Below, piece after piece: positions 10,860 to 28,201 of a DNA stretch of 32,000 nt. Each line of letters begins with the position of its first letter. Positions within the stretch are counted from its first letter, which is position 1. The notes beneath the pieces were generated by a model, which searched no databases, was not told the origin of the DNA, and saw nothing but the letters and a program-made list of their open reading frames with translations. The translations under genes and the position numbers were made by a program. Source of the stretch: Methylorubrum extorquens (lineage in GTDB: Bacteria > Pseudomonadota > Alphaproteobacteria > Rhizobiales > Beijerinckiaceae); the NCBI GenBank assembly GCA_900234795.1, contig LT962688.1, positions 2,430,001 to 2,462,000 of the forward strand. Reading direction: 5' to 3'.

Positions 10860-11207
10860 GTGGCCCGTGCCCGCCTCCTCCTTGCCGCCTCCCTCTTCGG
10901 GCTCGCCGCCCAGGGGGCTTCTGCCCAGAACTTGCAGGATCGCCCCTACGGCGATGCGCGCGGGCCAACGGTGTACGAGGTCGATCCCGAGAGCGGCCGC
11001 TTCCGTGGCCCGCCGATCAGCACCGACGGTCAGGATCTGCGCGCCATCGGTGCCGTGCCGGTGCCGACCGTGATGAATGGCGGCGGCTTCGGCCCCACCG
11101 GCAACGACTATTACGGCAATGTGCTCCTCGCGACGCCGCAGGGCCCGCGCCATGCCTCGGACGGCTACGTCTTGGCTCCCGCCTACCGGGCTCCGCCGCT
11201 GCGCTGA
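10860..11207 (+). CDS. Secreted hypothetical protein
   Basis: This lies within ORF 10755..11207. GTG 10860 is preceded by GGAG (10850-10853) and gives (M)ARARLLLAASLFGLAAQGASA|QNL, a clean Sec signal peptide. The mature part is Gly/Pro-rich and matches no family I recognise. A start as far upstream as 10755 cannot be excluded. Confidence 0.5.
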   Translation: MARARLLLAASLFGLAAQGASAQNLQDRPYGDARGPTVYEVDPESGRFRGPPISTDGQDLRAIGAVPVPTVMNGGGFGPTGNDYYGNVLLATPQGPRHASDGYVLAPAYRAPPLR

Positions 11208-12069
11208 GATGCCGGCCTCCGGGTCTTTGACTGGCGATCCGGTAGGCATGCTGGGCGCGCGGTTCTCAGCTCGAGAGCAACCGGCGCGCTGGGTCCCTGA
11301 TTGGGGTTTCATCTTCCAAGCCGCCTGCCGCGCGGAAATCAGCGCTCGTGCAGCTTGAATGCCCCCAGCCTCACGATTCGGACAGGGCCGTTGCGGCTCT
11401 CATTCGGGGTGGGTGCCCTTAGAGCGATCCGCTCTCAACCCTATTGCGTCAAGTGCGATACCGTTTCGGCCCATGATGGGGCTGGACATCCAATGGCGAT
11501 CTCAAAGCTCCTCTCAATCGCCCCCTGAACGCATCAAATCGAATTTGCCGCATCGCTGCGGTGATCCGAATATTGGTGTGTGCCAGCAAGGGCGTTGCTC
11601 GTTGCGGCGCGCGTTCACCGGCGGCGATTGCTCGTCTGCCTCCTGCCGCTCAGCACACGAAGTAATGGCCGGCATCCAGAAGGCACGTTGCGTCTCCGTC
11701 CTATCTGGAAGCAATCAGTTCAGGAGAAATCTCTGATAATGCGCCGATCGTAATAACAGCGTTAAAATCAAGTATTTATCGGTAAAATAGTTATTAAAAT
11801 AGGGCTTTCGCAGTCTCAGCGACGAGGGTCGTATCGTCGGATTTGTTCCAAGCTGTGTGCCTCCACCGAGGATGACGCTTTCGATATGTTTTCATATTAA
11901 CCTGCGGAACTTGAGGTGCCCGTACGACTCCGCTATCTCCCGATTGTGATCGCCGCAGGCCGGGCCGGGACCGTCCCGGTGGCGTTGAAGCGTTCTCCGA
12001 CATCCTCCGATCGGGTCATGCGCCTCGTACTTGCCTTTCGAACCAGCGCGGGCCTCGCTCGGGGCAGTC

Positions 12070-12591
12070 ATGTCGATCAGGCAAAGCCGCGCATCCAATC
12101 CGCCGTCGGCGCTTGGGGGGCGGCAATGCAGCCAGCGTGTTGTAAGCTTTGCGAGGTGCGTCTTGTACACGTTGCGTGACGACCTCGACGGCCTGCGCTT
12201 GGCGGCTCCCGACAGTCCGGATGTCTGGCTGGTTTTCGGAGGCCGGCGGCACCGGGTCGCGAGCCCGACCGTCTATCAAGCCCTATTCGCGGGGCCGGAC
12301 GATCTCATCTTCAGAGAGGATATCCCCTCGATCACGATGGGACCGGAACTGAACGAAGGCACCTGCCTCGTCCGTCCCATCGGCTCCCACGCCATCTTTC
12401 TCGTCACCGGCCGCGCCCCGCCGCGCAGGTACCACATTCCGACCTATGAGAGCTTCACCGATTTCGGCTTCAACGAGCGGGCCGTGATCGACGTGCCGGC
12501 CTTGATCCTTGAGGCGGTCGAGCTCGGGGGTGAACTGACCAGCGCCTTCGATCGGGCGCGCCGGGCGCCGGCCTCGACGGAAGAGGGATAG
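12070..12591 (+). CDS. Hypothetical protein, first gene of the atypical three-gene block; start uncertain
   Basis: The ORF is open from TTG 12031. The first ATG is at 12070. TTG 12163, preceded by GAGGTG, would give (M)YTLRDDLDGLRLAAPDSPDVWLVFGGRRHRVASPTVYQALF.... The stop TAG 12589-12591 lies 2 nt before the TTG start of the next gene, with GAAGAGGGA acting as an internal SD. This indicates an operon. Confidence 0.5.
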   Translation: MSIRQSRASNPPSALGGRQCSQRVVSFARCVLYTLRDDLDGLRLAAPDSPDVWLVFGGRRHRVASPTVYQALFAGPDDLIFREDIPSITMGPELNEGTCLVRPIGSHAIFLVTGRAPPRRYHIPTYESFTDFGFNERAVIDVPALILEAVELGGELTSAFDRARRAPASTEEG

Positions 12592-12593
12592 GT

Positions 12594-14150
12594 TTGGGCG
12601 AGCGCAGCGTCACCATCGCAATTCCCGTCCACAACGGCGCGAACTATCTCGGCGAGGCGATCGAGAGCGCACTGTGCCAGAGCCACCCGGAGACGGAGGT
12701 CATCGTCGTCGATGACGGCTCTGACGACGATGGGCAGACCTTGGCCGTCGTGCGCGCCTTCGGAAGCCATATCCGCACCCTGCGCCAATCCAATAGCGGG
12801 GTGGCAGCAGCGCTCAATACCGCTCTCACCTGCGCCTCCGGTCGCCTGTTCTCCTGGCTGTCGCACGACGATCTGTTCGAGCCTGGAAAGACCGAGCGTC
12901 AGGTACAGATTCTGGACACGCTCGACCGTGACGACATCTGCCTGTTCTCCGATCTGTCATGGATCGATTCGACGGGCCGCGTTACCGGCGAGCAGCGGCT
13001 CGACCCCGCTGCGCTGGCGCGCAACCCGCGCCTCGCTTTCTACGAAGGCCTGATCAACGGCTGCACCATCCTGACTGCCCGCGACCTGCTTCTGCGCGTC
13101 GGCGGCTTCGACACGCGCTATCCCTACACCCAGGACTATCGCATGTGGTGGAGGCTGACCCGCGAGGCCCACTTCGTCCACGTTCCGCACTGCCTCCTGC
13201 GTTCGCGGCTCCATCCGGATCAGGGTTCTCACCGCCGCGATGCGCTGTCCGAGAACAGTGCCTTCTGGAGCGACGTGCTCGGCGAGACGAGCGAGGTCGA
13301 GGCCGCGATGGTGGACGGAAGCCGGGAGCGCTTCCTGAAGCGGACCGGCGGTTTCCTGCGCTATCGGAGCCCGAACCGACGGGTTGCCGATCATGCCGAC
13401 CGGATGGCCCAGGCGAGTGCCGCGGAGGCCTCGGTCTCGGTGGTCATCGATGTCGGGAGTGATCTAGCGGCCGCGCGTCGCGCGATCGACAGCGTAGAAT
13501 CCCAGACCCGGCTGCCGGACGAGATGGTTCTCATCGGAGATGACTCAATCCTGATGGCGCTCGACCGAGACGGTGCCTGTGACCGGGTGTTGCGGCCGAC
13601 GCCGGAGCAACGGACTCCTTCGCGCCTTCGCCTTGGGCTCATGGCGGCCCGCGGCGCCTACGTCGCATTGTTGATGAGCCCGGACGTCTTCGCTCCCGAC
13701 AAGATCGCGCGTCAGGTCGCACGAATGTCCGCTCTGGGGTGCCTCGCCTCGCACAGTTCCTATCGCAGTGGCGGCGAGACGGTCGCAACCGGCAGCTTCG
13801 GCGGGCGCGTCTATCCGGAGATCGTCGGCGACTGTCATGTCGAGATTTCCACCGTGATGATACAGCGAGTGCTGTTCCTGGCCGGCCTGTTGTTCATGGA
13901 TGATGACGCCCCCCTCGCGTCGAACTGGATCGATATCGCGGCCCGCCACGAATGGCTTGGTCTAGAGGAGGCCCTGTCCGTCGTCGAAACGCCACGCGCG
14001 CCCGGGGAGAGGGCGCTGCTTCTGACATGGCTGCGCGCGTCGGCGGAGTATCGCCACCATACCGTGCAGATCGGTCGTCTCGAGAGGCGGCTCGCCGACG
14101 CAACGCTGCCGATCCGTGCGTCGCTGGGAGGCTCCGATGCCGCTGCGTGA
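12594..14150 (+). CDS. Family 2 glycosyltransferase with an intact N-terminal GT2 domain and a degenerate second GT2-like domain
   Basis: The sequence has VTIAIPVHNGANYLGEAIESALCQSHPETEVIVVDDGSDDDG and SHDDL (DxD), hallmarks of GT-A/GT2. A second copy-like segment, ASVSVVIDVGSDLAAARRAIDSVESQTRLPDEMVLIGDDS, starts near residue 285. There are many A/T-ending codons, unlike neighbouring core genes. Confidence 0.75.
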   Translation: MGERSVTIAIPVHNGANYLGEAIESALCQSHPETEVIVVDDGSDDDGQTLAVVRAFGSHIRTLRQSNSGVAAALNTALTCASGRLFSWLSHDDLFEPGKTERQVQILDTLDRDDICLFSDLSWIDSTGRVTGEQRLDPAALARNPRLAFYEGLINGCTILTARDLLLRVGGFDTRYPYTQDYRMWWRLTREAHFVHVPHCLLRSRLHPDQGSHRRDALSENSAFWSDVLGETSEVEAAMVDGSRERFLKRTGGFLRYRSPNRRVADHADRMAQASAAEASVSVVIDVGSDLAAARRAIDSVESQTRLPDEMVLIGDDSILMALDRDGACDRVLRPTPEQRTPSRLRLGLMAARGAYVALLMSPDVFAPDKIARQVARMSALGCLASHSSYRSGGETVATGSFGGRVYPEIVGDCHVEISTVMIQRVLFLAGLLFMDDDAPLASNWIDIAARHEWLGLEEALSVVETPRAPGERALLLTWLRASAEYRHHTVQIGRLERRLADATLPIRASLGGSDAAA

Positions 14151-14589
14151 CCTGTTCCAGCGAGGGCGTGCCCTCCTCACAGCGACGCCGACGGCGGACG
14201 AGGCGGCGGGAACCGCCGTGACATCCGCTGCCGATTGCGACGCGATCCAGGCGCTGTTGCACGAAACACAGCGCCGGCTCTCGGTGGCCGATCAGCGATT
14301 CGCGATCCTTGAGAGCAGCAACCGGACGGCAGTGCGGGCCGTGCGCCGATTCCTGCAAGACCGTGACCGTCTCGTTGCTGAGCGGGAGGCCGCCGTCATT
14401 CAGGTTTCGATCGCCGTCGGGGATCGGCAGCGCACGATGATGCTCAACGACCATCTCCTGTCGGCGCTGCGCGACAGCGAAGAGGCCCGCGCACGGCTCG
14501 AAAGCGACAACCGGGATCTGCGTCGGCAACTGGCTGAAAGTGGCCCATCGACCGCACGGACCATCGAGGCCGACGGCTTTACGGGCTGA
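14137..14589 (+). CDS. Hypothetical coiled-coil protein
   Basis: ATG 14137 is preceded by GGAGG and overlaps the glycosyltransferase stop (14148-14150). The protein MPLRDLFQRGRALL...QRRLSVADQRFAILESSNR...EEARARLESDNRDLRRQLAE has heptad-like, charged helical character. I recognise no family. Confidence 0.5.
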   Translation: MPLRDLFQRGRALLTATPTADEAAGTAVTSAADCDAIQALLHETQRRLSVADQRFAILESSNRTAVRAVRRFLQDRDRLVAEREAAVIQVSIAVGDRQRTMMLNDHLLSALRDSEEARARLESDNRDLRRQLAESGPSTARTIEADGFTG

Positions 14590-14936
14590 GCCGAGGCGGC
14601 GCGCGATCCGAGGTGCTCCCGGCCCTCCGATCTTCTGCGCCGACGCCAAAAATGGGCTGCCTCGAGATTGTCCGGACGGGGCGTGAAGGCAGCTTCTCCG
14701 AATGTCTGGCGCCGCAGCGATTGCACTGCAATAACACGAAACTTGTCAGTATTCTGCGTATTGGCCGTTTCGGAAGGTTCTCAACGGCACGAGGCATTTG
14801 CGCTGGACGCCGAAGTTTGGCAATTAAGTTCAGCTTCTCGAGGGAGGGCGCCTGAAGCCGAGCAACGTCGCAGCAACGTTCGACGGCCATTCCGGCCGGG
14901 CTCGGCACACCACAATCAAAAATCAAGGACGCACGC

Positions 14937-17069
<2,133 letters not shown>

Positions 17070-18778: not shown

Positions 18779-19966
18779 ATGACCAGATCCCTGACCGCCC
18801 TCGCCGTGGCACTCCTCACGGGTACGATGGCGAGCGCCCTCCCCGCCCGCGCGCAGGAGGGAAAAGCCGCGCTCACCAAGGTCGCCAGCTTCGAGCATCA
18901 GGTGACCGGCATCACGGTGGCCCGCGACGGGCGCATCTTCGTCAACTTCCCGCGCTGGAGCGAGGACGCGCCGGTCTCGGTGGCCGAACTGAAGGACGGC
19001 AAGCCCGTGCCCTTCCCCGACGACCAGTGGAACGCGTGGCGTAACGCGCGGGCCGACGAGCTCTCGCCGAAGGACCATTTCGTCTGCGTGCAGAGCGTCG
19101 TCGCCGACGGGCAGGACCGGCTCTGGGTGGTGGATGCCGCCGCCCCCGCGATGGCGCATGTGATCAAGGACGGGCCGAAGCTCGTCGGGATCGACCTCAA
19201 GACCAACAAGGTCATCAAGACGATTCCCTTCGACACCACCACGGTGCTCCAAGCCTCCTACCTCAACGACGTGCGGATCTCGCCGGACGGCAAGACCGCC
19301 TATCTCACCGATTCCGGTGCCGAGGGCGCGCTGATCGTCGTCGATCTCGACAGCGGATCGGCCAAGCGCATTCTGTCGGGCGATCCCTCGACCATGCCCG
19401 ACAAGTCGGTGACCGTGAGTTACGACGGCAAGCCGCTGCGCCGCCCCGACGGGCGCGGCGTAGAATTCGCCGCCGACGGCATCGCGCTCTCGAACGACGG
19501 CAAGACGCTCTACTGGCAGGCGATCAAGGGCAAGACGCTCTACAGCCTGCCGACCGATGCGCTCACCGGCTGGGCCGCTGCCTCGGTCGTGCCCGACACG
19601 CTCACCGACAAGAGCCTTTCAAGCAAGGTCGTGAAGGTCGGCGAGAACGGCGTCGCCGACGGCCTGCTGATCGCCCGCCGCGACGGGCGGATGTACGTGA
19701 CCTCGCCGCAGGACAACGCGGTGAAGGTGCGCGACCTCGCCGGCGGCAAGGACGGGCTCGCCACGTTGGTGCAGGACCCAAGCTTGCGCTGGCCGGACAC
19801 GTTCGGCGAGGGGCCGGACGGGACGATCTACGTCACCACCTCGCACATCCAGGATTCGGTCGACTACAAGCCCGGCGCGCCGCTCAGCCTGCCGACGGAG
19901 CTGTGGGCGATCAAGCCGCCCGCCTCCGATGCCACCGGCTCGACCACAAGCGCTCCGGCCCGCTGA
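18779..19966 (+). CDS. Secreted major-royal-jelly-protein / yellow family (MRJP, beta-propeller) protein
   Basis: ATG 18779 gives MTRSLTALAVALLTGTMASALPARA|QEG, a signal peptide. The segments SFEHQVTGITVARDGRIFVNFPRWSEDAP, DRLWVVDAAAP, YLNDVRISPDGKTAYLTDSGAEGALIVVDLDSG and DGTIYVTTSHIQ resemble bacterial MRJP/yellow homologues as I remember them. Confidence 0.6.
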   Translation: MTRSLTALAVALLTGTMASALPARAQEGKAALTKVASFEHQVTGITVARDGRIFVNFPRWSEDAPVSVAELKDGKPVPFPDDQWNAWRNARADELSPKDHFVCVQSVVADGQDRLWVVDAAAPAMAHVIKDGPKLVGIDLKTNKVIKTIPFDTTTVLQASYLNDVRISPDGKTAYLTDSGAEGALIVVDLDSGSAKRILSGDPSTMPDKSVTVSYDGKPLRRPDGRGVEFAADGIALSNDGKTLYWQAIKGKTLYSLPTDALTGWAAASVVPDTLTDKSLSSKVVKVGENGVADGLLIARRDGRMYVTSPQDNAVKVRDLAGGKDGLATLVQDPSLRWPDTFGEGPDGTIYVTTSHIQDSVDYKPGAPLSLPTELWAIKPPASDATGSTTSAPAR

Positions 19967-19996
19967 GCCGGCCCTCTGCGACCCGATGGACTCATG

Positions 19997-20018
19997 GGGG
20001 CGCGCATCGGCGCGCCCC
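19997..20018 (+). other. Intercistronic GC hairpin between the MRJP-family gene and the hydrolase gene
   Basis: ggggcgcgc (19997-20005), loop atcg, gcgcgcccc (20010-20018): a perfect 9-bp stem, followed 4 nt later by the AAGGAG ribosome-binding site of the next gene. There is no U-tract. Confidence 0.35.
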
Positions 20019-20034
20019 GTTCAAGGAGCCTGGC

Positions 20035-20856
20035 ATGCCCTTCATCGAGACCAGGGACGCGACGCGCCTCTTCTACAAGGATTGGGGGAGCGGCCCTCCG
20101 GTCGTGCTGATTCATGGTTGGCCGCTCGATGCCGACATGTGGGAGTATCAGCAGCCGGCTCTGACAGGTGCGGGCTTTCGCACCATCGCCTATGACCGGC
20201 GTGGGTTCGGGCGCTCGGACCAGCCCTGGAGCGGCTACGATTACGATACCTTCGCCGACGACCTGAAGGCCGTGCTCGACAGCCTCGACCTTCAGGACGT
20301 GACCCTCGTCGGCTTCTCCATGGGCGGCGGCGAGATCGCCCGCTACCTCTCGTGCCATGGCGGCGCACGGGTGGCGCGCGCGGTGCTCGTCTCCGCGGTG
20401 ACGCCGATGCTCGCCAAGACGCCCGATCACCCCGAGGGCGTCGATGCCAGCGTGTTCGAGGGGACGATCGAGGGGATCGAAAGGGACCGGCCGCATTTCT
20501 GGTCGAACTTCGTCAAAAGCTTCTTCGGCGCCGGCCTGCTTTCCTCGCCGGCTTCATCGGAGCTGATGGCCTGGACCGGGATGATGGCGATGCGGGCCTC
20601 GCCCAAGGCGACGGTCGATTGCGTGCGCGCCTTCGGCGGGACGGATTTTCGGGCCGACATGGCCGCGTTCCGGGTGCCGACCTTGGTGATCCACGGCGAC
20701 GCCGACCAGACCGTGCCCTTCGACATCAGCGGCAAGGCCGCGGCGCAGGCCATTCCCGGCGCCCGCCTCGAAGTCTACGAGGGCGCGCCGCACGCCATCC
20801 CCTTCACCCACAAGGACCGGCTGACCGCGGATCTCCTGGCCTTCCTGCGCGTGTAG
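20035..20856 (+). CDS. Alpha/beta hydrolase of the non-haem chloroperoxidase / arylesterase type
   Basis: ATG 20035 is preceded by AAGGAG. The sequence is MPFIETRDATRLFYKDWGSGPPVVLIHGWPL...RGFGRSDQPWSGYDYDTFADD...LVGFSMGGGE (GxSxG nucleophile elbow) ...IHGDADQTVP...GAPHA. It looks very similar to bacterial cofactor-free haloperoxidases/perhydrolases. Confidence 0.8.
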   Translation: MPFIETRDATRLFYKDWGSGPPVVLIHGWPLDADMWEYQQPALTGAGFRTIAYDRRGFGRSDQPWSGYDYDTFADDLKAVLDSLDLQDVTLVGFSMGGGEIARYLSCHGGARVARAVLVSAVTPMLAKTPDHPEGVDASVFEGTIEGIERDRPHFWSNFVKSFFGAGLLSSPASSELMAWTGMMAMRASPKATVDCVRAFGGTDFRADMAAFRVPTLVIHGDADQTVPFDISGKAAAQAIPGARLEVYEGAPHAIPFTHKDRLTADLLAFLRV

Positions 20857-20864
20857 GGGGCCGA

Positions 20865-22592
20865 TCAGCCGTCCTGAAGTGCTGCCGACGCGTCGGCACC
20901 GATCAGGCGCGCCCGGAGCGGCTGGGCGCGCCCCGTCAGCGTCAGCTCCTGAAGCGCGCCGGGGGAGATGCCGGCGGCCTCGTAGACGGCCTCCGAGACG
21001 ATCGCGACCTGCCGCATCGGCCCGGTCAGCCCCTCGAGCCGGGCGGCGACGTTGACGGTGTCGCCGAGCACCGTGAAGCGGGATTCGGTCTCGTCGCCGA
21101 ACTCGCCGACGATGGCCATGCCCGCATGCAGGCCGACGCCGTAGCGCAGGCGCTCGCCGAGATCGGCGGCGAGCATGCGGTTGAGCTGCTCCACATGGCG
21201 CGCGATGCCATCGACCGCCTTGAGGGCGTCGCGGGCCGCGTGCTTGGGATCGCGATCAAGGCCGAAGATCGCCATCAGCCCGTCGCCGAGATGCTGGTTC
21301 ACGGTTCCGCCCGACTCGCGCACCGCCCGGCCGACCGCGCCGAGGAAGCGGCCGATGACGAAGACGGTGTCGTAGGGCAGGTGTTCCTCCGCGAACCGGG
21401 TCGAGCCGCGCAAGTCGGCGAACAGCACGACGACGAACCGCTCCTCGCCGGTCGCGGCCCGCTCCGGATCGCGCATGGAGGCGGCGCGGGCCTGCGGCGT
21501 GAACAGCGGCGCGACGGTGAGGTCGCCGTCGGGCCGGAGCTGGCAGGCGAGCCTTATGCCGGGGCTCGCGCCGATGCGGTCGAGGACGAGACGCTCGGCC
21601 CGTTCCGGCTCCGGCAGGAGGCGGCTGCGTTCCGTATCGACGACCCGGATGCGGCAGGTCGAGCAGCGCCCGCGCCCGCCGCACACGCTCGCATGCGGGA
21701 TGCGGCCGCGCCGGCTCGCTTCCAGCACGCTGCTCCCCCGCGGCATGCGGACGGTGCGCCCGTCGGGATAGCCGATGCGCACGAAGCCGCCCCGCGTCTC
21801 GGCAAGGGTGCGGGCGCCGCGCGCGAGCAGGACGAGGGAGAGCAACGCCATGTATGCCAGGAACAGCCCGCGCCGGATCGCGCCCAGCCGTTCGGTCTGC
21901 TCGGCCAGTCCGAGATGGTTCGGCCCGAGCTCCTGTGTCCGCCACGCCGGATCGGCGGCGAGCGCCGCGACGCTGCGCCCGCCCTGCACCACGCCGAGGA
22001 GGGCCAGCACCGGCACCAGCACCGCGCCCGCGAGCAGCCAGGGCGCGGCGCGGGCAAAGCCGCGCTTGAGCCGGAGCCAAAAATAGAGGCCGAAGCAGCC
22101 GTGCAGCCACGCGACGACCAGACCCGCCGCCAGCATCAGGCCGTGGCCCGGCGCGGCGACCCAGGCGGCGTAGAGAACCTGGGCATAGCCCCGGTCGAGT
22201 TCTTCGACGCTCCAGGCCAGACGCGTGCCGACGACGTGACTGAGAAGGAGCAGGGGGACGAAGAGGCCGAGCAGGAGCTGCGCGGTCTCGGCGGGCCGCA
22301 CCCGGTAGAAGCGCCGCTCGTAAAAAGCCTGGAGCCCGAGGGCGAGGTGAACGAGAAGCGCGCCGTAGAGGACCACGAGTGCCGGCGGCGTGCGCCAGAG
22401 CGCGACCTTCACCGCAAGCCCGGTCTCCAGCGCATCGAGCGAGATGTTGCCCAGCGCGTGGCAGAGCAGGTGCGTGAGCACGTAGGCGAACAGCACGAGG
22501 CCGCTGCCGAGACGAAGCTGACGTAAGGTGGGCCGGGCGGGCCAGCGCAAGCCGAGGGTGCGGCCGAAGCCCGGACGCGCCGCCTGCCCCAC
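20865..22592 (-). CDS. Multi-domain class III adenylate/guanylate cyclase: about six N-terminal TM helices rich in His, a 2Fe-2S ferredoxin-like domain and a cyclase catalytic domain
   Basis: The cyclase core has FVVVLFADLRGSTRF, HLGDGLMAIFG and LGDTVNVAARLE. The ferredoxin-like Cys cluster is SVCGGRGRCSTCRIRV...LACQL. The N-terminal hydrophobic helices carry His (LTHLLCHALG, LLVHLALG, LLLSHVVG, AWLHGCFG). My preferred start is GTG 22592..22590, which follows GAAGGAG by 8 nt. The ORF is open up to ATG 22763, but that extension is low-complexity and would overlap the divergent promoter. Confidence 0.8.
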   Translation of the reverse strand: MGQAARPGFGRTLGLRWPARPTLRQLRLGSGLVLFAYVLTHLLCHALGNISLDALETGLAVKVALWRTPPALVVLYGALLVHLALGLQAFYERRFYRVRPAETAQLLLGLFVPLLLLSHVVGTRLAWSVEELDRGYAQVLYAAWVAAPGHGLMLAAGLVVAWLHGCFGLYFWLRLKRGFARAAPWLLAGAVLVPVLALLGVVQGGRSVAALAADPAWRTQELGPNHLGLAEQTERLGAIRRGLFLAYMALLSLVLLARGARTLAETRGGFVRIGYPDGRTVRMPRGSSVLEASRRGRIPHASVCGGRGRCSTCRIRVVDTERSRLLPEPERAERLVLDRIGASPGIRLACQLRPDGDLTVAPLFTPQARAASMRDPERAATGEERFVVVLFADLRGSTRFAEEHLPYDTVFVIGRFLGAVGRAVRESGGTVNQHLGDGLMAIFGLDRDPKHAARDALKAVDGIARHVEQLNRMLAADLGERLRYGVGLHAGMAIVGEFGDETESRFTVLGDTVNVAARLEGLTGPMRQVAIVSEAVYEAAGISPGALQELTLTGRAQPLRARLIGADASAALQDG

Positions 22593-22691
22593 CGCCCCCG
22601 CTCCTTCTTCGAAAACCGCTTCAGTCTTCCATAGCGCGCGGCGGCGCTCCGACGAAACCGTCCGCCGCGCGGGAAAAATTCGTGCGTCCCA

Positions 22692-22718
22692 TGTCACGGC
22701 GCCGCCTTCCGCCTCGTC
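22692..22718 (+). promoter_or_regulatory. Candidate ECF41-dependent promoter upstream of the cupin-CMD-sigma operon
   Basis: TGTCACG (22692-22698), an exactly 16-nt spacer, then CGTC (22715-22718). The element lies 68 nt upstream of the cupin ATG. As I recall, the target motif reported for group ECF41 sigma factors is TGTCACA-N16-CGTC, so 10 of 11 specified positions match. Confidence 0.55.
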
Positions 22719-22786
22719 ATGGGGGCAGGACGATGGAACGGGCCGGCTTGCCGCCCTCCCCATCGCCGCTTCGATGGAGAGGGACG

Positions 22787-23221
22787 ATGATCCGATCGTG
22801 TCTGCGTGTCGCCGCGTTCGCGGCGCTGCTGACGAGCGCTGCCGCCCACGAGATGAAGGGGAGAGAGGCCGCCGGGACAGGCGGGGACGCCACGGCCGCC
22901 CTCGTCTTCGACCATGCCCTGCCCAACGTGCCGGGCAAGAGCCTGCGCGCCGTGCTCGTCACCTACGGGCCGGGCGGTGCCTCGACCGCGCATACGCATG
23001 CCAGGAGCGCCTTCATCACCGCGACGGTTCTGGAAGGGGCGATCCGCAGCCGGGTGAACGACGGGCCCGAGCGGGTCTACCGGGCCGGTGAGAGCTTCAC
23101 GGAGATGCCCGGCGATCGCCACCCTGTCAGCGCCAACGCGAGCGCCACCGAGCCGGCCCGCCTGCTCGCCGTCTTCGTCCTCGACAGCGACGAGACCCGC
23201 CTGACCACGCCGATCCGCTGA
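22787..23221 (+). CDS. Cupin-domain protein with N-terminal signal peptide
   Basis: ATG 22787 is preceded by GGAGAGGGA. The signal-like start is MIRSCLRVAAFAALLTSAAAHE. The cupin core is GPGGASTAHTHARSAFITATVLEGAI...GESFTEMPGDRHPVSANAS. Confidence 0.7.
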   Translation: MIRSCLRVAAFAALLTSAAAHEMKGREAAGTGGDATAALVFDHALPNVPGKSLRAVLVTYGPGGASTAHTHARSAFITATVLEGAIRSRVNDGPERVYRAGESFTEMPGDRHPVSANASATEPARLLAVFVLDSDETRLTTPIR

Positions 23222-23254
23222 ATCTCACTCTCTGCAACGAAAAGGACGAAGCCC

Positions 23255-23719
23255 ATGACACCGCGTGTCGAAAACCCCTACGATCACGCACCCGCCGCCA
23301 TCAAGGCGATGCTCGCGGTGGAGACGAGCTTGCGGACCGGTGGCCTCGAGCGGAGCCTGATCGATCTCGTGAAGCTGCGCGCCTCGCAGATCAACGGCTG
23401 CGCCTACTGCATCGGCCTGCACACCACCGAGGCCCGCCGGCATGGCGAGAGCGAGATGCGGATCGTTCTGCTCAACGCGTGGCGAGAGGCCGCCCTCTAC
23501 AGCCCGCGCGAGCGCGCCGCTTTGGCCTGGACCGAGGCGCTGACCCGCCTATCCGAGGCGGGTGCGCCCGACGCGCTCTATGCCGACCTGCGGACGTCCT
23601 TCACGGAGGCCGAACAGGTGCAGCTCACGCTCCAGATCGGCGCGATCAACCTGTGGAACCGGTTGCAGGTCGGCCTGCGCGGCGTCCACCATCCCGACCC
23701 GTCCCGTGATGCGGCCTGA
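23255..23719 (+). CDS. Carboxymuconolactone decarboxylase family / AhpD-like alkylhydroperoxidase-core protein
   Basis: 154 aa with LRASQINGCAYCIGLH (the CxxC of the AhpD-like core) and the WNR motif region. This is the typical partner gene of ECF41 sigma factors. Confidence 0.8.
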   Translation: MTPRVENPYDHAPAAIKAMLAVETSLRTGGLERSLIDLVKLRASQINGCAYCIGLHTTEARRHGESEMRIVLLNAWREAALYSPRERAALAWTEALTRLSEAGAPDALYADLRTSFTEAEQVQLTLQIGAINLWNRLQVGLRGVHHPDPSRDAA

Positions 23720-24590
23720 GGCGTTCGATCCGTTCGAGGCAGAGCGGGCGCGGCTGACCCGCCTCGCCTACCGGATGCTCGGTTCCTTCGCCGAAGCGGA
23801 GGATGTGGTTCAGAGCGCGTGGCTGCGCTGGCAGGCGGCGGACCGCGCCGCCGTCGCGGTGCCGGGTGCTTTCCTGTCGCGCATTGTCACCCGGCTCTGC
23901 CTCGACACGATGAAATCGGCCCGCGCCCGCCGGGAGGTCTATGTCGGGCCTTGGCTGCCGGAACCCTCCCTCGACACGGAAGAGACGATCGACGGCGACG
24001 ACCTCACCCTCACGCTGATGATGGCGCTGGAGCGTCTCTCGGCCCTGGAACGGGCGGCTTTCCTCCTGCACGACGTGTTCGGCGTGCCCCTCGACGAGGT
24101 GGCGGCGACGCTGGGGCGGGCGGCTCCGGCGGTGCGCCAGCTCGCCGTGCGGGCCCGCCAGCATGTCCGCGCCGAGCGCCCGCGCTACCCCCTGCCGCCC
24201 GAGGAGGGCGAGCGGATCGCGCGCGCCTTCTTCGACGCCTCGCGCAGCGGCGACGTCGCCGCCCTGCGCGGCCTGCTCTCGCAGACCGTGACGATGCGGG
24301 CGGATGGTGGTGGCAAGGTCGTCGCCTTCCTCAACCCGATTCGCGGAATCGATCGCGTCCTGCGGCTGTTCTCGGGGCTCGCCCGCAAACATTCCGGGTC
24401 GCCTGCTACCCTCCTCCGCGCCGTGCGGGTGGATGGCCTGCCGGGCTTCGTCAGCCTGGAACGCGGCGGCGTTCTCCAAGTGACGGCATTGGAAATCCGC
24501 GACGGGCGGATCGCAGGCATCTACATCACCCGCAACCCGGACAAGCTGCGCCGGGTGGCAGAGGCCGTGGCGATGCCGGCCGCGCGCTGA
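23709..24590 (+). CDS. sigJ: ECF sigma factor, group ECF41 (SigJ-like) with fused C-terminal SnoaL-like regulatory domain
   Basis: ATG 23709 (or GTG 23706) overlaps the CMD gene stop at 23717-23719. Region 2 reads LTRLAYRMLGSFAEAEDVVQSAWLRW, the signature YVGPWLPEP is present, region 4 reads ALERAAFLLHDVFGVPLDEVAATLGRAAPAVRQLAVRARQHV, and an extension of about 100 aa follows (FVSLERGGVLQVTALEIRDGRIAGIYITRNPDKL). No anti-sigma gene is adjacent. Confidence 0.85.
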   Translation: MRPEAFDPFEAERARLTRLAYRMLGSFAEAEDVVQSAWLRWQAADRAAVAVPGAFLSRIVTRLCLDTMKSARARREVYVGPWLPEPSLDTEETIDGDDLTLTLMMALERLSALERAAFLLHDVFGVPLDEVAATLGRAAPAVRQLAVRARQHVRAERPRYPLPPEEGERIARAFFDASRSGDVAALRGLLSQTVTMRADGGGKVVAFLNPIRGIDRVLRLFSGLARKHSGSPATLLRAVRVDGLPGFVSLERGGVLQVTALEIRDGRIAGIYITRNPDKLRRVAEAVAMPAAR

Positions 24591-24599
24591 GCGCAGCCC

Positions 24600-25106
24600 T
24601 TACAGCGGAGCGGCCAGCACCTCTTCCAGGGTGACGAGGCGCCCGGCTTCCTCGAAGCGGCGCAGCAGCGCCGATTGGCGAAAGCGCGGATCTCCGGTTA
24701 CCTCGAGGCCGAGCCAGGCCGGGCGCTCGAAGGCCTGGGCCTCGTGCTCCAGCTCCACCTCGGCCAGGATCATCCCGGCCAGCGTCCCACCGTAGACATC
24801 GATCTCCCAGACGAGCCCGGCATGCGGCACGCAGTGGCGGGTCTTCTCGATGAAACAGGTGTCGCAGACGAGGCGCATCATCGCTTCCGCGTCCGCCCGC
24901 GGAATCTCGTACTCGAATTCCGGCCGGCCGAGGCCGATGCGCGCGCCCTTGATGGTGAGCCAGGCCCGGTCCTCGTCGAGCCGAACCCGCACCTTGCCGG
25001 TGTCGAACTGCCCGATCAGCCCGTCGGTGAGCCGGTGCCGGCGGACGACGCCCGCCTTCCAGCCGTCATCGGCCACGAGAAATTTCCGCTCGACCTCGAA
25101 ACGCAT
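24600..25106 (-). CDS. Stand-alone CYTH-domain protein (triphosphate tunnel metalloenzyme; CyaB/ThTPase superfamily)
   Basis: MRFEVERKFLV carries the ExExK signature. The sequence then runs ...VRVRLDEDRAWLTIKG...EFEYEIP...WEIDVYGG...LAEVEL. GTG 25112 is an alternative start. Confidence 0.8.
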   Translation of the reverse strand: MRFEVERKFLVADDGWKAGVVRRHRLTDGLIGQFDTGKVRVRLDEDRAWLTIKGARIGLGRPEFEYEIPRADAEAMMRLVCDTCFIEKTRHCVPHAGLVWEIDVYGGTLAGMILAEVELEHEAQAFERPAWLGLEVTGDPRFRQSALLRRFEEAGRLVTLEEVLAAPL

Positions 25107-25228
25107 CGGCACAAAAGGACCCTGGCGGCGGGATTATTCCCGCCCCCTTCAGCCGCTCCGCCTTACGGTACTCACAGGTTGCGCGCCATCGTCTCCCGCG
25201 CAACGCCCTCTCGCGGGTCGGGATAACC

Positions 25229-26767
25229 TCAACGCCAGAACGGCTTGGTGTCGACGAGATCCTCGTGCGCCTCGGCCGCCGCCTCCAGAAGCTTGCGGCT
25301 GCGCGCCTCGATATCGGCTGCCGTCATCCCGGCGGCGAACAGGGTCGTCGCGCCGGCCGGCTCGACCGTCAGGTCCCGCATCAGTTCGTGGCCGGTGGCG
25401 ATGTCGTTGAGCGCGCCGAGATGGTCCTGCAGGTCCGAGAGGGCCTTGCCGAAGGCGCCGTGGCGCTTGCCCGCCTTCTTGCCGGGGAACAGGGGCGCGA
25501 AGAATTCCGCGCCGTAGCGCAGCTTCTTGGCGGCGATGCGCACCCGGTGGCGCTCCTCGGGGTCGAGGTCGTCGAGATGGCGCCCGCGCCGCTTCACCTG
25601 CCGCCGCCGCCGGTCGAGTTCGCGGGCGGCGAAGACGCGGGCCGGCTCCTCGCGCAGGGAGACGCGGCCGGGGCTGTCGTCCCGCAGCCAGGGGCCGGCA
25701 TTGATCCAGCCGATGAGGTCGAGCAGCAGCATCCGCCACGCATCGGAGCGCAGCAGCGCGGCGAGGTCGCGATAGGCCTTCGCGCGCTCGTCTTCGAGCT
25801 GCCGCTCGAGGCCGAGCAGGCCGACCTCGTCGGGATGCCGCTCGCGCTCGGCCGGCAGGATGGTGGCGAGGAAGACATCGAGGTTGCGCGCCCGGCCCAG
25901 CGGCTCGGTCGCCGCCTTCAGCTCCGCGCGGATGCGAACGCCGAGCGGATCGTCCACGAGGTCGCCGAACAGCGAGAAGGCCGAGCGCAGGCGCCGGATC
26001 GCGACGCGCATCTGGTGCAGCGCATCGGCGTCGCGGCTCTTGAGCAGGATGTCCTCGTTGATGCGCATGTGGCGCAGGCAGGCATGGGCGACGGCGCGGA
26101 ACGCCTCCGCCGCGCTCATGTCGTCGTGCAGCGGCACCGGCTCCGACTTGCGCACCCGGTCGATCTTGCCGGCGGCCAGGGCGTAGCCGCGCTCGGCCTT
26201 GCTGCGCACGCCGAGCCGCACGGGCACGAGGGCGGCGATGGCGTAGGCGAGCGCGAACACGTCGCTCGCGGTCCCCTCCTTCAGTTCGAGCTCGATCTCG
26301 CAGATCGACAGGATGTCGTCGCCGGCGGCCGGCGCCTCGATCCGGCCGAGATCGAGGGCGACCTCGATGCGGGACTCGCCCTGCTCGACGAGGTAGGTCC
26401 GCCGGGTGACCCGGGTGGTGAAGAGCGGCTCCAGCGCGGCATCGTCCGCGACGCGGCGCGCGAAGGGCGTGTCGGCGAGCGCGGCCCGGTCCGGCTCGGC
26501 GCCCTCGACCGGCTGCTCCCATTCCGGCCGATCGAACAGGCCATCGCCCTCGGCCTTGAGGGTCTGGACGAAGCGCCCTTCGCTCTCGCGCACCCGCAGG
26601 CCGAGCCCGGCCGCGTGCAGCTGCCGGTCCGGCGTGTCGAAATAGACGGAGGCGAGCTCGGCTTCCCCCTGTACCGCCGCCTCCCGCAGGAGCGGATGAT
26701 CCTGCAGGACGGCGAGGTCGGAGGGCTCGCATTCCAGCTTCAGCTCGATCTCGCGCGGGTCGCTCAT
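25229..26767 (-). CDS. CYTH + CHAD two-domain protein (YgiF-like inorganic triphosphatase architecture)
   Basis: ATG 26767 gives MSDPREIELKLEC (ExExK) ...LRVRESEGRFVQTLKAEG...ICEIELELKEG, the CYTH part. The CHAD part follows with conserved His/Arg helices: ALHQMRVAIRRLRSAFSLF, RHRVRIAAKKLRYGAEFF, LQDHLGALND. The 26 codons upstream in ORF 25229..26845 look non-coding. Confidence 0.8.
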   Translation of the reverse strand: MSDPREIELKLECEPSDLAVLQDHPLLREAAVQGEAELASVYFDTPDRQLHAAGLGLRVRESEGRFVQTLKAEGDGLFDRPEWEQPVEGAEPDRAALADTPFARRVADDAALEPLFTTRVTRRTYLVEQGESRIEVALDLGRIEAPAAGDDILSICEIELELKEGTASDVFALAYAIAALVPVRLGVRSKAERGYALAAGKIDRVRKSEPVPLHDDMSAAEAFRAVAHACLRHMRINEDILLKSRDADALHQMRVAIRRLRSAFSLFGDLVDDPLGVRIRAELKAATEPLGRARNLDVFLATILPAERERHPDEVGLLGLERQLEDERAKAYRDLAALLRSDAWRMLLLDLIGWINAGPWLRDDSPGRVSLREEPARVFAARELDRRRRQVKRRGRHLDDLDPEERHRVRIAAKKLRYGAEFFAPLFPGKKAGKRHGAFGKALSDLQDHLGALNDIATGHELMRDLTVEPAGATTLFAAGMTAADIEARSRKLLEAAAEAHEDLVDTKPFWR

Positions 26768-26866
26768 GCGGTTTCGTCCTGCTCCTCGTGAGGGTTGTGG
26801 CGGATGTGAGCCTACATCCTGCCGCATCGTCCGGGACAGGCACAACGCGGCTGAACCCGTGATGGA

Positions 26867-28201
26867 TCACGCATCCGCGTGACGATCCAGCGACAGAAGC
26901 GGGGATATGGTCCGAACAACCTCCGCCATCGACGGCCGCGCCCGCGGATCGGCCCCCCGGCAGGCCTGCTCCAGCGCGCGCCAATCGGCGATGCCGGCGG
27001 GTTCGGTCGCGCAATGGTCGAGCAACTCGCCGAGCAGGATACCCCAGGCGCGGGTCTCGATGCGCTGCCAGGCCGCGCCGGCCTCGCCGGGCGGCAGCAC
27101 GGAGGCGGCCCCGAAATCGCTCAGCACCGCCTCGCCCATGCCCCCATCCCACAAGGTATTGTGGCCGTAGAGGTCGCCGTGGAGCACGCCGCAGCCGTGA
27201 AGATGGGCAGTTGCCCGCGCCACGCCGGCCGCGATGCGCAGAGCCGTCTCCGGCGCCAGGGCGAAGTCCGGCGCGTAGACGTCGCGGCTGCAGCTTTCCA
27301 GGCTCGGCGATCCGGCCAGAACCCGCCAGCCCTCCGGGATCAGCGGCATCAGCAGCCCCTGCACCCCGTCCGGATGCCCCTCGATCCGCCCGAGCGCGCC
27401 GGTGAGGTGGGGATGCCGGCCGGCGGCGAGGCAGGCCGCCATCTCCTGTTCGGGCAGCCCGTCGCTGGTCATGCGGCCCTTGAACAGTTTCACCGCGACC
27501 GTCGCCTCCCCGTCCGGCCGACGCCACAAAGCCCGGTGGATCCGCCCCGAGGCGCCCTCGCCGAGACACGGGCCGAGCGCGAGCGCGTCCCAGGGCACCT
27601 GCGGCACGCGGGCCGGCGCCGGCTCGCCGTCGAGGGGATTGCCGGCCCAGGCGATCCAGGCGAGCCGCGGCAAAGCCGTCAGCCAAGCGGGCAGCGCGTC
27701 GAAGCGGTTGGCGGAGAGGCGCAGCAATTCGAGGCTTGGCGCGCCTTCGAGCGACGCGGGCAGCGCCTCCAGCCGGTTTCCCGCCAGCATCAGCTTCTGC
27801 AGGTGCGGGCGCCGGCCGAGGGCGTCCGGCAGGTGCGCGATCCGGTTGTCGGTCAGCGTGAGCCAACGCAGGGCCGGCGGCAGCGCCTCGCCCGGCACCT
27901 CCCGCAAGCCGGTGGCGCGAAACCCGACCTGACTCAGCGCCGGGCAATCCCCGAGGGCGGGCGGCAGACGCTCGAATCGGTTCCCCGAGCAGAACAAGAC
28001 GCGCAGCCGCTTGAGCCGGCCGATGTCATCCGGGAGTGCGGTGAGGCCGCAATCGCTGAGATCCAGCAGTTCCAGGGTATCGGCGAGGCCAAAAATTTCG
28101 GGCGGGAATTTTTTTAGGGTTCCGCTCAGGCGCAACTCCCGCGCTCCGGCGAGGTCGCCGCGGCGGAGGGCATGCAGCGTGGGGGGCGGTGGGGTGTTCA
28201 T
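26867..28201 (-). CDS. Leucine-rich-repeat / protein-kinase-like fusion protein (cytoplasmic)
   Basis: 444 aa with no signal peptide or TM segment. There are at least 7 tandem LRRs of about 23 aa (LELLDLSDCGLTALPDDIGRLKR, LRWLTLTDNRIAHLPDALGRRPH, LQKLMLAGNRLEALPASLEGAPS...). The kinase motifs are LGEGASGRI, VAVK, HGDLYGHN and SDFG. Confidence 0.8.
   Translation of the reverse strand: MNTPPPPTLHALRRGDLAGARELRLSGTLKKFPPEIFGLADTLELLDLSDCGLTALPDDIGRLKRLRVLFCSGNRFERLPPALGDCPALSQVGFRATGLREVPGEALPPALRWLTLTDNRIAHLPDALGRRPHLQKLMLAGNRLEALPASLEGAPSLELLRLSANRFDALPAWLTALPRLAWIAWAGNPLDGEPAPARVPQVPWDALALGPCLGEGASGRIHRALWRRPDGEATVAVKLFKGRMTSDGLPEQEMAACLAAGRHPHLTGALGRIEGHPDGVQGLLMPLIPEGWRVLAGSPSLESCSRDVYAPDFALAPETALRIAAGVARATAHLHGCGVLHGDLYGHNTLWDGGMGEAVLSDFGAASVLPPGEAGAAWQRIETRAWGILLGELLDHCATEPAGIADWRALEQACRGADPRARPSMAEVVRTISPLLSLDRHADA

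Follow-up and report, generated by a model that had tools for sequence, protein, structure and literature searches.

The question raised by this locus, a minus-strand gene in a 32,000-nucleotide stretch of Methylorubrum extorquens DNA (the window), is whether a single polypeptide that joins a histidine-rich membrane domain, a ferredoxin and a nucleotide cyclase couples electron-transfer cofactors to the synthesis of a second messenger, and if so, whether such an enzyme is new and which nucleotide it makes. We propose that the gene encodes a redox-regulated nucleotide cyclase of the CyaC type, and from the sequence, a structural model of the membrane domain and analogy with a characterized relative we put the probability of this reading at about 0.8. 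It is a known kind of system, in which only the altered nucleotide-binding pocket is new and modestly interesting.

[quoted passage not shown] That start was rejected, as the close homologues have 575 residues (81–97% identity, 100% coverage), the extension would run across the ECF41 promoter of the neighboring operon, and a GTG codon at 22590..22592 has a good Shine-Dalgarno sequence (AAGGAG) 8 nt upstream. The length of the homologues and the Shine-Dalgarno sequence therefore support the GTG codon as the start. Orthologues of the protein are vertically conserved across Methylobacterium and Bradyrhizobium. The layout proposed in a first-pass annotation of this DNA, in which about six transmembrane helices are followed by a ferredoxin-type cysteine cluster and a cyclase core, is borne out at 20865–22592, as all of the motifs quoted there were found and their codon positions verified.

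Table 1. Coordinates of the cyclase gene, its domains and the divergent neighboring operon, as positions in the window.
Feature	Position	Strand	Basis or remarks
Cyclase gene, complete, 575 aa	20865..22592	-	Start codon GTG, stop codon TGA; haem-type 6TM anchor followed by 2Fe-2S ferredoxin and class IIIb cyclase domains
Six-helix transmembrane anchor, residues 23-267	21792..22526	-	Hydropathy and AlphaFold model
Adrenodoxin-type [2Fe-2S] ferredoxin domain, residues ~270-360	21513..21785	-	Pfam Fer2 (E 6.6e-8), NCBIfam and PDB matches
Class III (IIIb) cyclase homology domain, residues ~385-540	20973..21440	-	Pfam Guanylate_cyc (E 3e-13); 1wc1 alignment (E 3e-20)
CAG codon of Gln433, at the substrate-defining Lys position of adenylate cyclases	21294..21296	-	Alignment with Spirulina CyaC
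Divergent intergenic region, 194 bp, between the cyclase gene and the cupin-CMD-ECF41 operon	22593..22786	.	Gene starts
ECF41-type promoter motif TGTCAC-N17-CGTC	22692..22718	+	Reads toward the cupin gene and not toward the cyclase gene
Divergent neighbor operon	22787..24590	+	Pfam matches; genomic context
Cupin, signal-peptide-like N-terminus	22787..23221	+	
Carboxymuconolactone-decarboxylase-family protein (CMD)	23255..23719	+	
ECF sigma factor with SnoaL-like C-terminal extension	~23706..24590	+	

The N-terminal anchor contains six helices by hydropathy, the limits of which were taken from the AlphaFold model (residues 23-49, 69-92, 100-130, 149-173, 179-212, and 230-267; pLDDT 89), and the positive-inside rule suggests that both termini are cytoplasmic (N-in/C-in). 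Its histidine motifs are THLLCH (H41, H45), LLVHL (H82), LLSHV (H119), and AWLHG (H164). Four of these histidines, His41, His82, His119, and His164, lie on TM1 to TM4, with His41 and His119 located in the periplasmic half of the anchor and the other two in its cytoplasmic half. To assess conservation, 150 family representatives (clustered at 50% identity) were aligned together with the window protein, and each of the four is kept in 146-150 of the resulting 151 sequences and is among the 15 most conserved transmembrane positions, while His45 is less conserved (130/151).

When the anchor model was compared with the PDB using Foldseek, the best match, and the one convincing match, was FrdC, the di-haem cytochrome b subunit of the quinol:fumarate reductase of Wolinella succinogenes (2bs4_C; probability 0.98, TM 0.51/0.57 over 237 columns, with a weak E-value of 0.81). 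The only other matches with TM values above 0.25 were 1qlb_C, which is the same FrdC protein, and a chain of the membrane subunit of Mycobacterium smegmatis Sdh2, and all remaining matches had values of 0.25 or less. By sequence, an hmmsearch of the PDB with a profile of the anchor gave only chance matches and no link to fumarate reductase/succinate dehydrogenase (FRD/SDH) cytochrome b, and hhalign detected no similarity between the anchor and an FrdC sequence in which the numbering of H44, E66, H93, H143, E180, and H182 agreed with the literature. The kinship of the anchor with these cytochromes is accordingly seen by fold only, at a weak E-value, and the model points to it rather than establishing it. 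In quinol:fumarate reductase, helices 1 to 4 of FrdC carry the haem-ligating histidines, a pair close to either membrane face, and an iron-sulfur center lies next to the proximal haem toward the cytoplasm. We take the ligand pairs of FrdC to be H44 with H143 and H93 with H182, that is, helices 1 and 3 and helices 2 and 4, the same arrangement as that of the four histidines of the window protein when its helix limits are taken from AlphaFold. FrdC has five helices, however, and stands as its own subunit in a respiratory enzyme whose catalytic head is FrdA/FrdB, whereas the window anchor has six and continues in the same chain into a 2Fe-2S domain and a signaling output.

The ferredoxin domain is placed between the anchor and the catalytic domain and has four cysteine ligand positions, C304, C310, C313, and C350, in the motif CGGRGRCSTC...LAC with the spacing C-x5-C-x2-C-x36-C. 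These cysteines are retained in 144-148 of the 151 aligned sequences, which puts them, with the four histidines, among the best-conserved positions of the family. Adrenodoxin-type ferredoxins were the matches to this domain in a PDB sequence search (E ∼1e-7, range 1e-7 to 1e-5), in which the cyclase domain matched the CyaC protein of Spirulina (1wc1), and there are also partial matches to the NCBIfam families NqrF and fdx_isc.

The cyclase domain contains the motifs FADLRGST (D393), GDGLMAIFG (D437), and GDTVNVAARLE (N514, R518). Among 120 close homologues the metal-binding residues Asp393 and Asp437 are invariant, as are Asn514 and Arg518 of the transition-state N-x-x-x-R motif, and Thr507, the second substrate position, which aligns with the Thr of DFTAIG in Spirulina CyaC, is a Thr in 119. 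In the alignment the catalytic residues D393, D437, T507, N514, and R518 are canonical, and Gln433 takes the place of the Lys. The idea put forward in the first-pass annotation, that the cyclase of this protein is under the control of redox cofactors in the membrane and the cytoplasm, is well supported, as it agrees with the conserved sets of four His and four Cys, with the likeness of the modeled anchor to FrdC in its fold and with the intact catalytic core.

The same annotation knew of no biochemical characterization of a fusion of this type, and in this it was wrong. As described by Beltz et al. (2016, eLife; PMC4821796), ferredoxin-containing class IIIb cyclases with six transmembrane helices form cluster 1 of the membrane-anchored enzymes that they compared, which is found in alpha- and beta-proteobacteria and is represented by Q132R4 of Rhodopseudomonas palustris. 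In cluster 1 the ferredoxin lies between an FRD/SDH-cytochrome-b-like anchor and the catalytic domain, and four precisely spaced intramembrane histidines led to the prediction of two haems (PMC4821796). The window protein displays every feature by which the cluster is described, although the cluster 1 anchors are similar to FRD/SDH cytochrome b at the level of BLAST (PMC4821796) and the window anchor by fold only. Moreover, CyaC of Sinorhizobium meliloti (SMc01818) contains di-haem-B and a [2Fe-2S] cluster and is activated on oxidation by quinones, as reported by Wissig et al. (2019, Mol Microbiol 112:16) and cited by Klein et al. (2023; PMC10463352) and in three further papers (PMC9552081, PMC13259868, and PMC13596540). 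Because the architecture is already characterized, a finding that the first-pass annotation had itself named as fatal to its claim, the claim of novelty fails.

The window protein and S. meliloti CyaC are both from Alphaproteobacteria of the Hyphomicrobiales/Rhizobiales and both run from a six-helix anchor through a [2Fe-2S] domain to a class III cyclase, and the modeled fold of the window anchor suggests a relation to the di-haem-B cytochromes of SQR/QFR, to which the anchor of CyaC is related. The published active-site residues of CyaC, K410, T484, N491, and R495, have the same spacing (74/7/4) as Q433, T507, N514, and R518 of the window protein, the comparison being made through the published residue numbers. 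A Rhizobiaceae member of the family is numbered exactly K410/T484/N491/R495, and a Lys-type homologue from Sinorhizobium sp. RAC02 is 44% identical to the window protein over 548 residues that include all of the domains. Homology to the characterized CyaC is therefore indicated indirectly, by way of these homologues and the published numbers. The two differ in that Lys410 of CyaC corresponds to Gln433 of the window protein, whose Gln-type subfamily has lost the Asp just before this position and, in most members, the GFT-motif Phe as well, and they differ also in context, as cyaC adjoins the TetR-type gene cycR and a LysR gene (PMC10463352; bioRxiv 2024.01.22.576614) while the window gene is next to a divergent ECF41 operon. 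In homologue searches seeded with one protein from a plasmid of 'Sinorhizobium sp. B11' and one from a Rhizobiaceae MAG the matches were Rhizobium or MAG proteins, the best 80 loci listed in a scan of genome contigs included none of S. meliloti, and plasmid searches for a CyaC-type cyclase returned only paralogues.

From these comparisons a mechanism can be proposed. The N-in/C-in anchor would bind two b-type haems, in the manner of the di-haem cytochrome b in quinol:fumarate reductase, with His41 (TM1) and His119 (TM3) as the predicted ligands of the distal haem and His82 (TM2) and His164 (TM4) as those of the proximal haem. The haems would equilibrate with the membrane pool of quinone and quinol, and the adrenodoxin-type [2Fe-2S] domain, which follows TM6 directly and would sit under the proximal haem, could extend the redox chain into the cytoplasm. 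The redox state of this chain would then pass through a short linker to the class IIIb catalytic domain, presumably a homodimer. If the enzyme behaves like S. meliloti CyaC, an oxidized quinone pool would activate it and a reduced one would silence it. Its most likely product is cAMP, but the Gln433/Thr507 pocket, in place of Lys/Thr, may relax the selectivity. The architecture itself adds nothing new, as this is one more member of a very large family, the sensor module of which alone falls into 560 clusters at 50% identity, and the prototype, S. meliloti CyaC, already ties the redox state of respiratory quinones to cAMP. If cAMP is the product, the window protein would be an ordinary CyaC orthologue in a methylotroph.

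The most serious alternative concerns that product. The canonical Lys, four residues before the second metal-binding Asp, is absent from the window protein and a Gln takes its place. In the HMMER alignment vnQhlGD of the window protein is opposite vdKfvGD of Spirulina CyaC, and Q433 therefore occupies the position of the substrate-defining Lys, as the first-pass annotation had read by eye from the sequence Q-H-L-G-D; the Lys/Asp pair that was looked for at the two specificity positions is not there, the alignment giving Gln433/Thr507. The replacement of this adenine-selecting Lys is conserved in the clade, with Gln present in 116 of the 120 close homologues, and Gln is found in about a third of the family representatives; the tally among the 151 aligned sequences is K 53 versus Q 34. 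The Gln state falls into stable clades, requiring 13 changes on the tree compared with 35.6 when the states are shuffled. It also co-varies perfectly with the loss of the neighboring Asp (D432 to N, A, or V) and mostly with F397S, S517A, and Y416F, so that N/A-Q replaces D-K and a Ser replaces the Phe of GFT in the remodeled pocket of the subfamily. Such co-variation suggests a pocket remodeled by selection rather than by drift, and with Gln433 in place of Lys and the pocket partly remodeled, the activity and product cannot be assumed to be identical to those of CyaC.

One may therefore ask if the same sensor controls a domain with a different or mixed product, either cGMP or a promiscuous set of purine and pyrimidine cyclic nucleotides, and so lets the redox state of the quinone pool act through some cyclic nucleotide that is not cAMP. 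There is a precedent of sorts in Rv0386 of Mycobacterium tuberculosis, which is also a class III cyclase with Gln for the substrate-defining Lys and which, with Gln and Asn at the two specificity positions, is reportedly active with ATP and turns over some GTP. However, Rv0386 is still said to be predominantly an adenylate cyclase with guanylate cyclase as a side activity, and it belongs to a different subclass, has Asn rather than Thr at the second position, and is a soluble AAA-ATPase/HTH fusion without a redox sensor. Furthermore, guanylate cyclases normally have Glu at this position and not Gln, Thr507 is the residue of class IIIb adenylate cyclases, and no cGMP-specific receptor was found in the neighborhood. 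On balance we regard a non-cAMP product as unlikely for the window protein, and quite unlikely as the selected property of the Gln-type subfamily as a whole, which includes proteins of Methylobacterium, Bradyrhizobium, Tardiphaga, and Variovorax and for which the pocket would have been shaped to make cGMP, a mixture or another non-cAMP nucleotide. No characterized member of this subfamily was found in the literature searchable here. Were the product not cAMP, the subfamily would represent a natural switch of specificity within one family of sensors and a simple test bed for the rules by which class III cyclases select their substrates, and it would define a dedicated pathway from the redox state of the quinone pool to a non-cAMP messenger, distinct from that of S. 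meliloti CyaC.

With cAMP retained as the most likely product of a CyaC-type enzyme, a second question is whether the gene works together with its divergent neighbors. The first-pass annotation described a control region of 194 bp shared with the ECF41 operon, and the distance is correct, the cupin gene starting with the ATG at 22787, but shared control does not follow, as the sole ECF41-type motif in the region faces the cupin gene. We take TGTCAC-N16/17-CGTC to be the consensus of ECF41 promoters, and there are two matches to such a motif in the window where 0.08 would be expected. The intergenic motif has the same position and orientation in two relatives (L004 and L007) and there too faces the cupin gene. 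The presence of such a motif in the 194-bp region, and the divergent gene order shared by Methylobacterium relatives with proteins of 81% and 71% identity, might suggest that the cyclase gene is a functional partner of the cupin-CMD-ECF41 operon or a member of its regulon. In M. durans, moreover, another ECF sigma/anti-sigma pair lies immediately upstream of the orthologue. Yet the arrangement is absent from M. durans itself, from Bradyrhizobium lablabi and from the Rhizobium/Sinorhizobium plasmid homologue that was inspected, and conservation inside one genus can be plain synteny. With no correctly oriented motif and with synteny not conserved, control of the cyclase gene by ECF41 was rejected, and a functional partnership of any kind seems improbable. 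A scan of the locus for sigma-70 promoters and terminators gave no usable signal, and the intergenic region showed no sigma-70-like promoter.

The cyclase domain might instead be weak or dead, the protein being a pseudo-cyclase that serves mainly in membrane electron transfer or as a scaffold, since both the canonical Lys and the phosphate-binding Phe of GFT are missing (S397) and some representatives of the family do have degenerate cyclase domains, in which both metal-binding Asp residues are replaced while the four-His/four-Cys sensor is kept. Across the whole clade, the window protein included, there is however little or no variation at the two metal-binding Asp residues or at Thr507, Asn514, and Arg518, which is the pattern expected from purifying selection on catalysis, and this makes a loss of activity highly improbable. 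Finally, there is next to no chance that the gene is a pyrimidine cyclase of a Pycsar-type antiphage system, as the hits of PADLOC PycC profiles on the cyclase domain (best E 8e-24) are generic, PycC proteins being class III cyclase homologues, while the sensor is of a conserved, housekeeping type, the gene is inherited vertically across the two genera named above, and the context rules the system out, with no adjacent cNMP-binding effector and, as neighbors, an alpha/beta hydrolase, an MRJP-family gene and the cupin operon.

The membrane-anchored cyclase encoded at 20865..22592 very probably belongs to the family of CyaC, the quinone-responsive cyclase of Sinorhizobium meliloti, as judged by residue spacing and rhizobial homologues rather than by direct alignment with CyaC. 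The residues mutated in CyaC, K410/T484 and N491/R495, follow one another at intervals of 74, 7 and 4, as do Q433/T507/N514/R518 in the window protein, and one Rhizobiaceae family member has exactly the CyaC numbering. The protein aligns end to end with rhizobial homologues that have Lys at the position of Q433 (44% identity over 548 aa to that of Sinorhizobium sp. RAC02), and Rhizobium plasmid copies are about 42% identical to it. According to four papers citing Wissig et al. 2019 (PMC10463352, PMC9552081, PMC13259868, PMC13596540), S. meliloti CyaC contains two haem B in its hexahelical domain and a [2Fe-2S] cluster, ubiquinone both oxidises and reduces the haems, and oxidation by quinone activates the cyclase. 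Beltz, Bassler and Schultz (2016; PMC4821796) clustered the 6TM anchors of cyclases and described a cluster 1 similar to the cytochrome b of FRD/SDH. The first-pass annotation knew of no biochemical characterisation of such a fusion, which, going by these citing papers and by cluster 1, was wrong, and its claim of novelty falls to a refuting condition that it had itself set, namely an architecture characterised before. Its mechanistic reading, in which redox cofactors are coupled to a class III cyclase, is supported, but a system of this kind has already been published and studied biochemically.

The longest form of the minus-strand ORF ending at 20865 starts at 22763 and encodes 632 aa. The GTG at 22592, chosen in the first-pass annotation and giving 575 aa, is favoured because the nearest homologues are 575-576 aa long with 100% coverage (Methylobacterium sp. 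RAS18, 97% identity; Methylorubrum populi BJ001, 90%), an AAGGAG box precedes it by 8 nt, and the additional N-terminus of the longer form would overlap the neighbour's promoter. These homologues also place the window in a Methylobacterium/Methylorubrum genome. The motifs it quoted are all present, with codons verified. Pfam identifies Fer2 (E 6.6e-8) and Guanylate_cyc (E 3e-13) domains and has no match in the first ~270 residues, while sequence searches of the PDB returned adrenodoxin-type ferredoxins (about 1e-7) and, on the cyclase side, class IIIb enzymes as the best matches (Spirulina CyaC, a separate protein, 1wc1, 3e-20; also P. aeruginosa CyaB). Hydropathy and an AlphaFold2 model (residues 1-285, 55 homologues as input, mean pLDDT 89, pTM 0.82) concur on six TM helices (23-49, 69-92, 100-130, 149-173, 179-212 and 230-267), and the Arg/Lys-rich loops (N-terminus, 93-99, 174-178 and the segment after 258) would, by the positive-inside rule, place both termini in the cytoplasm. 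The gene is convergent with an alpha/beta-hydrolase gene; 8 bp separate the two stop codons, between which a terminator scan detected no intrinsic terminator.

Features of the window and of related loci
Feature	Position	Strand	Remarks
Cyclase gene	20865..22592	-	575 aa
Intramembrane His	H41/H45, H82, H119, H164		codons verified
Ferredoxin Cys	C304, C310, C313, C350		C-x5-C-x2-C-x36-C, adrenodoxin-type spacing; codons verified
Cyclase residues	D393, D437, T507, N514, R518		codons verified
Alpha/beta-hydrolase gene	19903..20856	+
ECF41-type motif TGTCAC-N17-CGTC	22692..22718	+	faces cupin gene
Same motif, relative L004	4875..4901	-
Same motif, relative L007	4848..4874	-
Second exact motif match	14197..14223	-	just past 3' end of glycosyltransferase-like ORF
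Two-domain glycosyltransferase-like ORF	12594..14150	+
CYTH/kinase trio	24600..25112, 25229..26845, 26867..28201	-	adjoins sigma gene
M. durans locus L003	2840..6671

None of the four His (H41, H82, H119 and H164) or of the four Cys varies among 120 close homologues. When residues 1-375, the sensor half by itself, were searched exhaustively with HMMER against 1.84 billion cluster representatives, 560 clusters scored at E <= 1e-30, and relaxing the threshold to E <= 1e-3 raised the number to 3521. The 150 best representatives were aligned with the window protein; each of the four His is kept in 146-150 of these 151 sequences, and each of the four Cys in 144-148. Only 15 TM positions of this alignment are at least 90% conserved, the four His among them, and H45 (130/151) and H150 fall outside the signature. 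By their depth in the model, the periplasmic half of the membrane would contain H41 (TM1) and H119 (TM3), and the cytoplasmic half H82 (TM2) and H164 (TM4). In FrdC, the cytochrome b subunit of Wolinella succinogenes quinol:fumarate reductase, H44 and H143 ligate the distal haem and H93 and H182 the proximal one, an arrangement equivalent to this depth pattern. FrdC was also the top match when the TM-domain model was compared with the PDB by Foldseek (2bs4_C, probability 0.98, with a weak E-value of 0.81; TM-score 0.51/0.57, rmsd 4.6 Å, 237 columns). Its entry 1qlb_C was among the matches, and the sole other one with a TM-score above 0.25 was 6lum_M (0.25/0.45 over 126 columns), a membrane-subunit chain of M. 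smegmatis succinate dehydrogenase 2, the remainder being unrelated (TM-score <=0.25). Since the E-value is weak and neither a profile search of the PDB nor hhalign against an FrdC sequence found a sequence-level relation to FRD/SDH cytochrome b, the model argues for kinship with FrdC at the level of the fold only.

The Gln that the first-pass annotation had read by eye at the substrate-defining Lys position was borne out by HMMER alignment, in which VNQHLGD of the window protein is matched with VDKFVGD of Spirulina CyaC, thus placing Q433 at that position; T507 occupies the class IIIb partner position. Q433 is neither an error nor a one-off, as Gln is found in 116 of the 120 close homologues (Methylobacterium and Bradyrhizobium). 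Of 86 representatives whose catalytic signature is complete, 45 have the specificity pair K/T, 19 Q/T, 8 Q/S, 5 S/Q and 2 T/Q, and on a neighbour-joining tree the state of the Lys position changes 13 times versus 35.6 when shuffled, and therefore defines stable clades. Members of the Gln type include Tardiphaga and the betaproteobacterium Variovorax. Residue 432 is Asp in 45/45 Lys-type and 0/27 Gln-type sequences (N, A or V instead), position 397 in the G-F-T motif is invariantly Phe in the Lys type and mostly Ser in the Gln type, including the window protein, and S517A and Y416F also follow the split. The Gln clade retains both metal-binding Asp as well as Asn514 and Arg518 and so looks catalytically active, its base-binding pocket being remodelled; it is this clade-wide pocket that remains of interest. 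The closest precedent known to us, M. tuberculosis Rv0386, pairs Gln with Asn and reportedly acts as an adenylate cyclase, with guanylate cyclase as a side activity. By this analogy cAMP would be expected as the main product; a different or mixed product may also be formed, though a non-cAMP product of the Gln subfamily seems unlikely. A third specificity-pair type in the same sensor family is the small S/Q or T/Q clade (7/86; e.g., P0274, P0292 and P0323), in which Ser or Thr replaces the Lys, and Gln the Thr.

Five representatives (P0254, P0268, P0277, P0299 and P0314) keep the 4-His/4-Cys sensor and have C-terminal domains that Pfam does not recognise as cyclases, that are homologous to the window cyclase domain (phmmer 1e-14 to 1e-26) and in which the metal Asp and N/R are replaced; in these proteins the same redox sensor appears to carry a pseudo-cyclase output. 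Other representatives of ~360-400 aa (e.g., P0326, P0319 and P0338) comprise the 6TM and Fer2 sensor without an output domain. Many are encoded on short contigs and could be truncated; genuine ones would be membrane di-haem/2Fe-2S proteins that stand alone.

The first-pass annotation also had the cyclase sharing a 194-bp control region with a divergent ECF41 operon. The divergent genes and the 194 bp stand, and the operon encodes a cupin with a signal-peptide-like N-terminus, a CMD-family protein and an ECF sigma factor whose SnoaL-like C-terminal extension is the hallmark of ECF41. The ECF41-type promoter motif in this region has two matches in the window versus 0.08 expected, and it is found ahead of the operon's first gene with its position and orientation repeated in two relatives, consistent with autoregulation of the operon; in one of these (L007) an additional NAD_binding_10 gene heads the operon. 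Methylobacterium relatives at 81% and 71% protein identity retain the divergent layout; M. durans (64%), Bradyrhizobium lablabi and the one rhizobial plasmid locus inspected do not. Since the motif faces the cupin gene and the layout is absent from these three, nothing points to control of the cyclase by the sigma factor, and the region is shared physically only. The M. durans orthologue has the same orientation as, and directly follows, genes for a cupredoxin, another ECF sigma factor and a zf-HC2 anti-sigma factor; this is the second time, independently, that the cyclase is found beside an ECF sigma system.

The trio adjoining the sigma gene encodes a stand-alone CYTH protein, a CYTH-CHAD protein and an LRR-plus-protein-kinase protein, and also flanks the operon in the relative at 81% identity; two unrelated signalling gene sets of the nucleotide/polyphosphate type thus lie within 6 kb of the cyclase. 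The second motif match has no obvious minus-strand gene downstream and may be a chance match, or mark an unannotated small gene or antisense target. The GC content of the window is ~70%, falling to 0.60-0.66 at ~11000..15000, a segment that includes the glycosyltransferase-like ORF and could have been acquired horizontally.
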